Position numbers and translations under genes: made by a program. Below the pieces are notes generated by a model. That model worked only from the letters and a program-made list of their open reading frames with translations. It made no database searches and was not told the DNA's origin. A DNA stretch of 64,000 bases from an uncultured Clostridia bacterium (lineage in GTDB: Bacteria > Bacillota > Clostridia > TANB77 > CAG-508), in NCBI GenBank assembly GCA_934133175.1, contig CAKPAX010000001.1, positions 28,387-92,386 on the forward strand. The letters run 5' to 3'. Positions 61,252 through 63,365 of this stretch are shown here, one piece after another (within the stretch, counting starts at the first letter, position 1; every line of letters starts with the position of its first letter).

Positions 61252-63015
61252 ATGGACAAACAATATAAATTTATACATTTGTTATATGTTCCAACTATGA
61301 ATTGCAATATGCAGTGCAAGTATTGTTATTTAAAAGAAAATACAATTGATTTAAAACAAGATGATAAATATTTACAAACATTAGAATATGCAATAAAAAA
61401 ATTTAAGGAATCAAATGTAATCCCATTTAATGTTTCATTGCATGGTGGAGAAGTAACAACATTATCTAAAAAAGATTTTAGAGATATAATTAAATTTATA
61501 TCTAATTATTACATAGAAAACAAGGAATTGATTGAAAGTAACGGTTTTAAATTAGGAAGTCCACATATAAAAACTAATTTGTTAAATTTAGAAAAACATA
61601 TAGATACAATAAAAGAATTTAATGTTTCAATTAGTGGAAGTTTAGATTTACCATTTTCCTTGCATGAAGAATATAGAGTAACAAAAGGTAATCAAAAAAC
61701 TTTAAATAAGATATTAGAAAATATAAAATTATTAGAAAATATTCCAAACAAAAAGAAAGTATCAGCAACAATTTTTAAAGAACACTATGATAAAATAAAT
61801 GAGATTATAAATGATATAAGGTTTTTAGATGAAAATACTTGTTTAAATATGAATGATTTTAACTTTATGATAGGATTTGTTTCTGGAAAAGATGATTTAT
61901 TACATGCTATGACAGAAGAAGAACAAGTTGATTTTTATAAAAAGATTAATAAAGAATTTATGGGAACCTCTTTAGAAAATGGATTAAAAAATTCTTGGTT
62001 TGCTGAGTTTAGCCCAGCATATTGTACAAATTGTGATAATTGTGGAGAAAAATTCTTTTTACTAGAAAGAGATGGAGATATATATTCTTGTGTAAGAGGA
62101 CAAAAAAACAAAGAATTTTATTATGGAAATATTTATAATAATTCAGTAGAAGAGATTTTAAGAAATGCTCAGGCGCAAATATTAAAGAATCATAATAAAG
62201 TAGATTTTAATGAAGAATGTACGAAATGTAAATATTTATATTTATGCAAAACGGGTTGTCCTTATGTTAAAAATGTATATAATTCGGATAAATCTTATAC
62301 ATGTAAATTACAACAGGAAATATATAAAGATAATAATGAATTATATCCATTGGATAAATTTAACGAAGAGTCTGTGTATATATATTTAAATAAAATGCAT
62401 CCAATAATATCTAATAAATATTATCCTAATATAAAAAATAATATGGAGTCAAATATGGTTGATATTTTAAAAATAATAGAAGAAGATAAAAAATTGAAAA
62501 ACATTTATAGTTCAGATATATTTATATTAAAAGTTGACAATAAAGAGTATAAATTAGAATCGCAAATATTAAAAACTACAAGAGATATTTTATATTTAAC
62601 AGATGAAAGTAAAATAAAAGTATATATAAAAAAAGGAGTTTTAGAAGACTGTGATTATCCTTCAAATAATTCTTTATACATGATGTTATTAACAGGAGAT
62701 ACGATTCAATATGGTGATGAGCAAAGAGTAAAGCAAGAACATATAATGACACATCAAATATATACAAATACTATAAAACAATATGAATCTGATAAGAATG
62801 GATTTTATTGTGTTGATATAACAGATTTATTAAAAATGTATTATAAAAAGTTATCAACGGTAAATGCAAATAATTTGTTTTTTACTACAAATGAATTAAG
62901 AGATTATCATTATAGTAAACAAAAGATAAATGCATATTATCATATACAAGCAATAAATTTACCATTTCAAAATATAGAATTCTTTTATATTGATTGTAGG
63001 GAGGAAATAAAATGA
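61252..63015 (+). CDS. radical SAM enzyme with full SPASM domain and ~210-aa unassigned C-terminal extension
   Basis: CNMQCKYC (Cx3Cx2C) at residues 17-24. SPASM pattern CGEKFFLLERDGDIYSC (Gx4C) followed by CTKCKYLYLCKTGC (Cx2Cx5Cx3C). Confidence 0.9.
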   Translation: MDKQYKFIHLLYVPTMNCNMQCKYCYLKENTIDLKQDDKYLQTLEYAIKKFKESNVIPFNVSLHGGEVTTLSKKDFRDIIKFISNYYIENKELIESNGFKLGSPHIKTNLLNLEKHIDTIKEFNVSISGSLDLPFSLHEEYRVTKGNQKTLNKILENIKLLENIPNKKKVSATIFKEHYDKINEIINDIRFLDENTCLNMNDFNFMIGFVSGKDDLLHAMTEEEQVDFYKKINKEFMGTSLENGLKNSWFAEFSPAYCTNCDNCGEKFFLLERDGDIYSCVRGQKNKEFYYGNIYNNSVEEILRNAQAQILKNHNKVDFNEECTKCKYLYLCKTGCPYVKNVYNSDKSYTCKLQQEIYKDNNELYPLDKFNEESVYIYLNKMHPIISNKYYPNIKNNMESNMVDILKIIEEDKKLKNIYSSDIFILKVDNKEYKLESQILKTTRDILYLTDESKIKVYIKKGVLEDCDYPSNNSLYMMLLTGDTIQYGDEQRVKQEHIMTHQIYTNTIKQYESDKNGFYCVDITDLLKMYYKKLSTVNANNLFFTTNELRDYHYSKQKINAYYHIQAINLPFQNIEFFYIDCREEIK

Positions 63016-63365
63016 TAGATAAAAAACCAAAGACTTATAATGAAATAATAAGATTGAAAAAATGTTATACTCTTTCAAATTATTTTTTAGATGTAACTGA
63101 AAATATGTTTAATGAGATATATGATTTTTTAAGTCTAGATTCAAAAAATACAATTTTAGCAAATAGAGAAAATATATTTTTAGTTGATACTAATAACAAG
63201 GTAGTAAAGAGTTTTAAAGTGACATCAAAAAATTCGTCATTTGATCAAATAAATATTAATAATGATAAATTTTCTGTAACACCTCATTATGACCCAAGTT
63301 CTAGTTATTCAAGTGGAGGATCATCAAGTAACAATAACAACAATAATAATAATAATAATAGTTAA
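63012..63365 (+). CDS. hypothetical 117-aa protein with Ser/Gly/poly-Asn tail, translationally coupled to the radical SAM gene
   Basis: ATGA start/stop overlap with 61252-63015. SD GGGAGG is inside the upstream gene. The C-terminus is ...HYDPSSSYSSGGSSSNNNNNNNNNNS. Confidence 0.6.
   Translation: MIDKKPKTYNEIIRLKKCYTLSNYFLDVTENMFNEIYDFLSLDSKNTILANRENIFLVDTNNKVVKSFKVTSKNSSFDQININNDKFSVTPHYDPSSSYSSGGSSSNNNNNNNNNNS
63330..63359 (+). repeat. AAY trinucleotide tract (10 Asn codons, including (AAT)6)
   Basis: aac aat aac aac aat aat aat aat aat aat read directly. Confidence 0.9.

Follow-up and report, generated by a model that had tools for sequence, protein, structure and literature searches.

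A radical SAM/SPASM enzyme of an undescribed family and its co-conserved Asn-tailed partner protein: a candidate modification pair in an uncultured Clostridia bacterium

The DNA analysed here, referred to as the window, is a stretch of 64,000 nucleotides (nt) from an uncultured Clostridia bacterium (assembly GCA_934133175.1, contig CAKPAX010000001.1, positions 28,387 to 92,386). Close to its 3′ end it harbors two translationally coupled genes, one encoding a radical S-adenosylmethionine (SAM)/SPASM enzyme of 587 amino acids (aa) and the other a 117-aa protein with a run of asparagines at its C-terminus (Table 1). Both genes possess a Shine-Dalgarno sequence, GAGGAA in the case of the small open reading frame (ORF), and the start codon of the latter overlaps the stop codon of the enzyme gene (ATGA). 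A first-pass annotation of the window had noted this overlap, the coordinates of which are confirmed, and had regarded enzyme and small protein as a candidate novel modification pair.

The enzyme carries its radical SAM cluster motif as C18-x3-C22-x2-C25, i.e. the CX3CX2C motif described in the first-pass annotation is present, one residue later than the position given there (C18-C25 instead of 17-24). Both the radical SAM superfamily and the SPASM assignment are supported by scores above the cut-offs, namely 36.3 bits for PF04055 (Radical_SAM, cut-off 29.5) and 28.1 bits for PF13186 (SPASM, cut-off 21.5) in Pfam as well as 50 bits for TIGR04085 (SPASM, cut-off 27) in NCBIfam. The SPASM cysteines are spaced as C264-x10-G275-x4-C280, C323-x2-C326-x5-C332-x3-C336 and C351, with C258 as an extra residue, and all eight are invariant in 35 orthologues and in nine very divergent relatives, in line with the complete cysteine set recognised previously. 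By their positions they would be suited to ligate two auxiliary [4Fe-4S] clusters fully, as in the anaerobic sulfatase-maturating enzyme (anSME). An alignment of the nine very divergent enzymes contains 72 invariant residues, among them all 11 cluster cysteines. Since the cysteine motif starts at residue 18, there is no room for an N-terminal recognition element (RRE) of the kind found in maturases for peptides that are made on the ribosome and modified after translation (RiPPs), the absence of which had been noticed before; a match to PqqD in Pfam is found neither for the enzyme nor for the small protein.

C-terminal of the SPASM region the enzyme is extended by a domain of 223 aa (residues ~365-587), which the first-pass annotation could not assign and which indeed has no match in Pfam, NCBIfam, PADLOC or the PDB sequences. 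In the alignment of the nine enzymes it contributes the invariant residues Y487, G488, R492, K494, H497, T545, T546, H553, Y554, N560, Y563, H564, N569 and P571, arranged in the family motifs YG..R.K..H, HY...N..YH and N.P. A phmmer search with the domain against 1.84 billion representative proteins retrieved 95 matches, each of them at the C-terminus of a protein of 588-616 aa or in a fragment, and judged from this search the domain is restricted to the present enzyme family. A profile built from the enzyme alignment yields nothing at E≤0.01 against the PDB sequences, and a search with the single sequence yields noise only. Among the anti-phage defence hidden Markov models (HMMs) of PADLOC-DB there is no family for either the enzyme or the small protein.

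All 32 NCBIfam matches of the enzyme lie far below the respective family cut-offs, the best being DynA (NF041298, 96.6 bits versus 450), and the QhpD- and MftC-type families are still more remote (TIGR03906, 36 bits; TIGR03962, 28 bits). Clustering with anSME, which the first-pass annotation had named as an outcome that would speak against a novel pair, is not observed either (TIGR03942, 89.5 bits versus an equivalog cut-off of 349.45). By these profile scores the enzyme belongs to no curated RiPP maturase family. In the predicted model (predicted local distance difference test score, pLDDT, 85) residues 1 to ~380 superpose best on anSMEcpe in a Foldseek search (E 1e-13, template modelling score ~0.7 on the target), followed by CteB, ChlB, SuiB and SkfB. 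The closest structural neighbors of the model are protein and peptide maturases. The relation to anSME and CteB is drawn from this fold comparison alone, the PDB sequence searches being empty. With the whole enzyme as query no Foldseek match is attributable to the C-terminal domain, as the targets are radical SAM cores with aligned lengths of at most ~410 columns.

The small protein terminates in ...HYDPSSSYSSGGSSSNNNNNNNNNNS, or written out ...HYDPSSSYSSGGSSS-N10-S, with three serines in front of the ten asparagines. AlphaFold2 predicts two helices and five strands for residues 1-93 and disorder for residues 94-117. The protein matches no Pfam or NCBIfam family, including NHLP/Nif11, and its model finds no counterpart in PDB and BFVD at E<0.02 (Foldseek); against PDB no match appears even at E<0.2, so that the predicted fold is neither RRE/PqqD-like nor that of a known leader. 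The 230 relatives found in the protein database are all unnamed or "hypothetical"; the source annotations of relatives read "hypothetical protein", an evident mis-annotation in one case, or nothing at all.

Conservation within the small protein is concentrated at its end. In an alignment of 35 sequences with a mean column identity of 38% the only invariant columns are N107-N112, while N113-N116 as well as S105 and G103 are conserved to at least 90%. In the homologues the 15 residues preceding the run consist of Ser (45%) and Gly (20%) to a large part. The lack of Cys, Trp and Lys in the putative core, seen as a difficulty in the first-pass annotation, loses its force given that the Asn run itself, one to a few residues away from the free C-terminus, is the one invariant feature. 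Throughout the 1.4-Mb genome (26% GC), the 3314 ORFs with a length of 50 aa or more contain only two runs of six or more Asn, and the small ORF is the only one that ends in five or more. Within its run the codons AAC and AAT are mixed.

Co-conservation of the two genes was assessed by clustering all ORFs of 54 related loci, with each species represented by a single genome. By tblastn the small ORF directly follows the enzyme in 49 of the 54, and it is also present in L038 and L039; overall, about 50 of the 54 loci have an Asn-tailed ORF directly after the enzyme, the remainder being truncated or decayed. The tails of these loci consist of a Ser/Gly linker and N6-N20, after which the protein ends either at once or with a single residue more (S, R, G, H, N, A or Q). 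Metagenome contigs were scanned with a profile of the C-terminal domain, which returned 477 stretches; 80 of them were kept, and in 73 of these the sequence continues for 500 nt or more past the enzyme. An Asn-tailed ORF is found in 70 of these 73 loci. In 67 cases it starts between -260 and +150 nt relative to the enzyme stop, in two at about +315 nt and in one at +1.75 kb, and such a tail is absent from the 2244 other ORFs of the same loci. The proposed pair is accordingly co-conserved in essentially every locus with downstream sequence, contrary to the second outcome that had been set as a refutation, and no description of this pairing of enzyme and Asn tail was found among the papers of the library searched or among curated families. 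As a definition of the family, a length of ~580-620 aa, the motifs of the C-terminal domain and a neighboring ORF with an Asn run are proposed, all of which are found in the pair of the window.

The metagenome loci span 22-67% GC, and the tails are retained in loci of 54-67% GC, e.g. as QS-N18-G with mixed AAC/AAT codons in L059 (64% GC). As the tails are kept at high GC, are encoded by mixed codons and are unique in the genome, selection acts on the protein and not on the DNA. Among near-identical strains the run varies from N4 to N13, so that the exact number of asparagines is not critical.

Some loci deviate in detail. In L047 (~7150-7270) the cassette is decayed: the enzyme gene lacks its N-terminal part, and of the small gene only the last codons persist (SSGGSSG-N12-S), fused just past the enzyme stop in another frame. 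The partners in the metagenome loci L140 (2751-3233) and L161 (1407-1892) have the linker GGCGGGCGGGFNS before N15-SNNG. Interrupted tails, e.g. N14-GNNG, are seen in other marine and sediment loci (L142, L153, L155, L158, L166 and L195), in all of which except L195 the partner gene overlaps a following ORF of 268-278 aa.

The cassette is present in a single copy in its own genome. In the same order it occurs, in a scattered manner, in 13 of 201 genomes and six of 32 genera (a raw tally of 16 genomes and seven genera includes three weak partial matches), and none was detected in 400 other genomes sampled across the phylum. It is nevertheless found in Clostridia, GC-rich bacteria and phages. 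The cassette is a sporadic accessory module that has probably spread horizontally.

The same enzyme family is also encoded beside proteins that share no scaffold with the small protein. A tblastn search of GenBank phages identified a homologue in Campylobacter phage CAM-P21 (35.5% identity over 97% of the length, E 4e-82), where the gene order is tail fibre, 211-aa protein, enzyme homologue. The annotated tail fibre protein (368 aa) ends in ...YAPSGSTNNNNY (SGSTNNNNY). A scan of IMG/VR with a full-length alignment picked up generic radical SAM motifs and mostly unrelated enzymes; an alignment of the C-terminal domain was used instead and yielded 13 loci. In six of them the gene at the tail-fibre position ends in ST/AT-NNNN-Y, one ends in CNNNNN, four in GNNF or GNNS, one is of the bacterial type and one is unclear, so that the pairing holds in 12 of 13. 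A third type of partner is found in L057 (a contig of 2.7 kb, 29% GC), which contains the most distant enzyme homologue found: two genes 5′ of it a protein with collagen-like Gly-X-Y repeats (1-243) ends in ...FARGYNNNNNGNNH (GYNNNNNGNNH). The invariant residues of the C-terminal domain stay fixed while the scaffold of the partner changes completely, and what they recognise or process is most likely the one element common to the partners, the Asn tail with the free C-terminus close by.

The shortest endings, SMGNNF, SSGNNF, STGNNF and SMGNNS, belong to the IMG/VR loci L116-L119 (~3270-4160), which are Campylobacter-type prophages or phages. If these gene products are substrates, the minimal motif would be much shorter than the bacterial N6-N20. 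L116-L119 share with CAM-P21 (L062, 7736-8122) a conserved Cys/His-rich protein of ~122-136 aa (...VVHDFLC...FYHSCN.YH..KC...), encoded directly 3′ of the enzyme gene and, in L117 and L119, two ORFs further on. In the phage form of the system it could act as an additional partner.

A different variation concerns the linker. In L033, L035 and L039 as well as in the metagenome locus L157, Cys-Gly repeats precede the Asn run, e.g. GCGSCGCSS-N11-G. In the three former loci, which belong to Acutalibacteraceae, the small gene is followed by a gene for a TVGYG K+ channel and by another radical SAM/SPASM gene, whose product has 345-358 aa, a combination seen only there and not in loci without linker cysteines. 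The best NCBIfam match of the second enzyme is the ACGX-system enzyme (145 bits, below cut-off). This co-occurrence of Cys-Gly linker and second enzyme suggests that the tail region may behave as a modifiable "core"; the three loci represent one lineage and hence one evolutionary event.

In Firmicutes the cassette comprises a third co-conserved member, a polytopic membrane protein with leucine-rich repeats (LRRs) that was overlooked in the first-pass annotation. Its gene lies directly 5′ of the enzyme in 47 of the 54 genome loci. Approximately five transmembrane helices are located in residues 5-236 and the LRR_5 domain in residues 277-513. Pairwise distances of the enzyme correlate with those of the small protein, taken without its tail, with a Mantel r of 0.94 and with those of the LRR protein with a Mantel r of 0.91. 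With a mean distance of 0.31, the enzyme has a slower pace of evolution than the small protein (0.54) and the LRR protein (0.55).

Taken on gene context and conservation, the enzyme is rather probably a dedicated radical SAM/SPASM maturase of an undescribed family which acts on the C-terminal Asn run of the coupled 117-aa protein. In the proposed mechanism the floppy tail would thread C-terminus first into the radical SAM barrel. The C-terminal domain would dock it in place of the missing RRE, and the terminal carboxylate would perhaps be held by R492, K494 and His, Tyr or Asn residues of this domain. The 5′-deoxyadenosyl radical could then abstract a hydrogen atom from Cβ or Cα of an Asn, and the two fully Cys-ligated auxiliary clusters would take the electron away, leading to a net oxidative reaction such as a cross-link or a desaturation, which may be repeated along the run. 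The product would probably remain a protein instead of being cleaved and exported as a peptide, and it may cooperate with the membrane LRR protein in gut Firmicutes. Hydrogen abstraction from Asn is known from other radical SAM/SPASM enzymes, in NxxcB at Cβ and in QmpB at Cα (PMC11851443). A conserved aromatic-to-Asn cross-link of the dynobactin type was considered as a universal mechanism and rejected, as many homologues have neither the aromatic residues of the linker (PHY motif, W or Y) nor an aromatic residue at the end.

Several observations do not sit easily with this interpretation. The substrate gene would lie 3′ of the enzyme gene and be translationally coupled to it, giving expression at about 1:1, which is unusual for RiPP precursors and would also fit an accessory subunit. 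The interpretation gives the folded domain of the small protein no role and does not account for a connection between this cytoplasmic protein and a membrane protein whose LRRs are probably outside the cell. The variation in run length, up to N20 and down to N2 in certain phage fibres, argues against a product of fixed structure.

A more far-reaching and more tentative proposal, which we consider quite possible without favoring it, is that of an unrecognised post-translational modification system: the enzyme family would act on Asn homopolymers at the very C-termini of otherwise unrelated proteins by an Asn chemistry not yet described, e.g. by iterative cross-linking or desaturation to a rigid or covalently stapled tail. 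Its targets would include, in bacteria of the gut Firmicutes and of high GC content, a small cytoplasmic α/β protein, and besides this the tips of phage tail fibres and proteins of the collagen-like type. A C-terminal poly-Asn stretch without a Cys, Trp or Lys partner would be unprecedented as a substrate motif; neither it nor the C-terminal domain of the enzyme corresponds to a curated family or to a paper in the library searched. Radical SAM/SPASM maturases are among the main sources from which new peptide and protein chemistry arises. If true, a new modification would be accompanied by a new recognition domain replacing the RRE. The pairing spans bacteria of 22-67% GC, many habitats and cultured Campylobacter phages and is kept in the reduced genomes (1.1-1.8 Mb) of uncultured gut Bacilli, so that the modification likely matters to its hosts. 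On phage fibres it may bear on adsorption or on fibre stability.

Known maturases share individual features with the proposed pair. The best HMM match of the enzyme is to DynA, the dynobactin maturase, CteB and SuiB are among its structural neighbors, and with NxxcB and QmpB it would share the abstraction of hydrogen from Asn. Unlike here, the precursors of DynA, DarE, PapB, CteB, SuiB, NxxcB and QmpB are short, an RRE is usually present, and the partner residue is Cys, Trp or Tyr, which is not conserved in the small protein; moreover, the gene clusters of cross-linking SPASM maturases include proteases or exporters, which are absent from the present loci. Dynobactin carries a Trp-to-Asn Cβ bond. 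QhpD modifies a protein subunit of ~110 aa (QhpC), and MftC targets residues at the C-terminus of MftA, its substrate. These two systems resemble the present one in having a small protein as substrate and a target next to its C-terminus. They differ in their targets, as neither Cys/Asp/Glu nor Val-Tyr is available here, and in their accessory genes, QhpA/B and MftB/D/E/F being absent.

Of the alternatives to a maturase for the Asn tail the one that survives best, although unlikely, assigns the small protein the role of an accessory subunit or adaptor. The Asn tail would then serve as a flexible tether or for docking, and the true substrate would have to be sought elsewhere, e.g. in the membrane LRR protein or a small molecule. 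The stoichiometric co-expression implied by the ATGA overlap, the well-folded domain of the partner, the lack of a linked protease or exporter and the equally strong co-conservation of the LRR protein are all compatible with such a role. It is difficult to reconcile with the Asn tails on tail fibres and on a collagen-like protein, since an adaptor fold would not be interchangeable to this extent. Within the small protein it is furthermore the tail that is invariant and the folded domain that is poorly conserved, the predicted fold does not resemble RRE/PqqD, and the LRR gene is missing at the distant bacterial loci L058 and L059.

Less probable again is an anSME-type reaction, in which a linker Ser would be converted to formylglycine (or undergo another two-electron oxidation) and the Asn run would serve for recognition only. 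anSMEcpe (PDB codes 4K36-4K39) is the best structural match and TIGR03942 the second-best HMM match of the enzyme. Both enzymes lack an N-terminal RRE and combine CX3CX2C with eight cysteines, which in anSMEcpe fully ligate two auxiliary clusters and are predicted to do so here, and both would act on a protein rather than on a short leader-core peptide. The linker, with its high Ser content and the well conserved S105, would offer targets, although many homologues have G, T, Y or C instead of Ser in front of the run, and tails of high-GC and phage loci are poor in Ser. The identity to anSMEcpe amounts to 18%, the C-terminal extension has no equivalent there, and the partner is devoid of a C/S-x-P/A-x-R motif, the Asn run being conserved instead. 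Apart from the score far under the family cut-off, no sulfatase (PF00884) is found in the genome (92% complete), while a control search was positive in 10 of 14 reference genomes. The earlier statement that no sulfatase lies nearby therefore extends to the whole genome.

A classical RiPP pathway, in which residues 1 to ~103 would be a leader cleaved at Gly-Gly and the Ser/Asn core would be exported as a bioactive peptide, is very improbable. The first-pass annotation had compared the small protein with NHLP/Nif11 precursors, with which it indeed shares a long N-terminal part, a Gly-Gly, a short low-complexity C-terminus and an adjoining radical SAM/SPASM enzyme. The comparison does not hold, since the putative leader is a stable folded domain matching neither family and the first Gly of the pair (position 102) is replaced by S, D or T in homologues. 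No transporter or protease gene is linked to the pair, as stated before for the window, where the terminator and the convergent gene had been given as the reason. A linked C39 protease or dedicated ATP-binding cassette (ABC) exporter is lacking in more than 130 loci, so that the absence does not result from the end of the window. The 54 genome loci contain no protease or exporter family that recurs, and ABC exporter genes, seen in six loci with no consistent orientation and lacking a C39 domain, were rejected as a part of the system. Tail-fibre substrates, finally, cannot be leader-core precursors.

That the poly-Asn tail is a functionless base-composition or microsatellite by-product of an AT-rich genome, as the 26% GC of the window and the polymorphic run length might suggest, is refuted by the mixed codons and retention at 54-67% GC, the uniqueness of the C-terminal run among the 3314 ORFs and its constant adjacency to this enzyme family.

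Table 1. Features of the enzyme gene, the small gene and their operon, in positions of the window.
Feature	Position	Strand	Basis
Radical SAM/SPASM enzyme, 587 aa	61252..63015	+	ORF list, Pfam, NCBIfam, alignments, predicted model
CX3CX2C radical SAM cluster motif (C18, C22, C25)	61303..61326	+	read from sequence; invariant in alignments
SPASM region, eight invariant Cys	62023..62304	+	PF13186 and TIGR04085 above cut-off
C-terminal domain, residues ~365-587	62344..63012	+	without Pfam, NCBIfam or PDB match
Small ORF, 117 aa	63012..63365	+	ATG overlaps enzyme TGA (ATGA)
Folded α/β domain, residues 1-93	63012..63290	+	AlphaFold2, pLDDT ~95
Disordered Ser/Gly-rich linker, residues 94-106, ...DPSSSYSSGGSSS	63291..63329	+	pLDDT 50-72
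Asn10 run (residues 107-116) and terminal Ser117, proposed modification site	63330..63362	+	conservation, codons, uniqueness in genome
Terminator-like hairpin closing the upstream 741-aa gene, 5′ border of the operon	57376..57423	+	22-bp stem, then T-run; dG -21.9 kcal/mol, z -9.8
First operon gene, membrane protein of the LemA family, 184 aa	57492..58046	+	Pfam LemA, E 1.7e-56
DUF2207 membrane protein, 533 aa	58049..59650	+	Pfam DUF2207 and DUF2207_C
Polytopic membrane protein, BspA-type LRR_5 at C-terminus	59677..61239	+	Pfam LRR_5, E 1.4e-68; hydrophobic segments
Bidirectional terminator hairpin, common to the convergent carboxypeptidase gene	63376..63414	.	dG -23.1 kcal/mol, z -6.4

Enzyme gene and small ORF form the 3′ end of a five-gene operon on one strand, in which LemA, DUF2207, LRR protein, enzyme and small ORF are separated by 2, 26, 12 and -4 nt and which is bounded by strong hairpins on both sides. 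The terminator and the convergent gene that had been noted downstream are confirmed as a hairpin with a perfect 17-bp stem followed by a PBP5/S11 carboxypeptidase gene (Pfam). DUF2207 and LemA are found in 23 and 18 of the 54 loci, respectively, exclusively in the close Bacilli clade, and were for this reason ruled out as core members. L009 has an additional DUF2207-LemA pair just 3′ of the cassette, on the opposite strand (7633-10070, minus strand). In these small genomes such pairs therefore seem to exist in several copies, and any functional tie to the radical SAM pair is weakened by this. Other lineages add further membrane proteins; seven loci carry a 342-aa membrane protein with a Zn-ribbon.

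Upstream of the operon a 741-aa protein (55141-57366, plus strand) with its own 3′ terminator is encoded, for which no Pfam family scores above the cut-off. It has a prepilin-like hydrophobic N-terminus (MKNKGITLIALVITIIVLLILAGVSIAML) and, internally, three long repeats, each of which includes NWYNYGEKKWAN...W(V/Y)(W/Y)IPRY...P(E/D)SFKFGDEE(N/S)GY..LAGYW..KYE.

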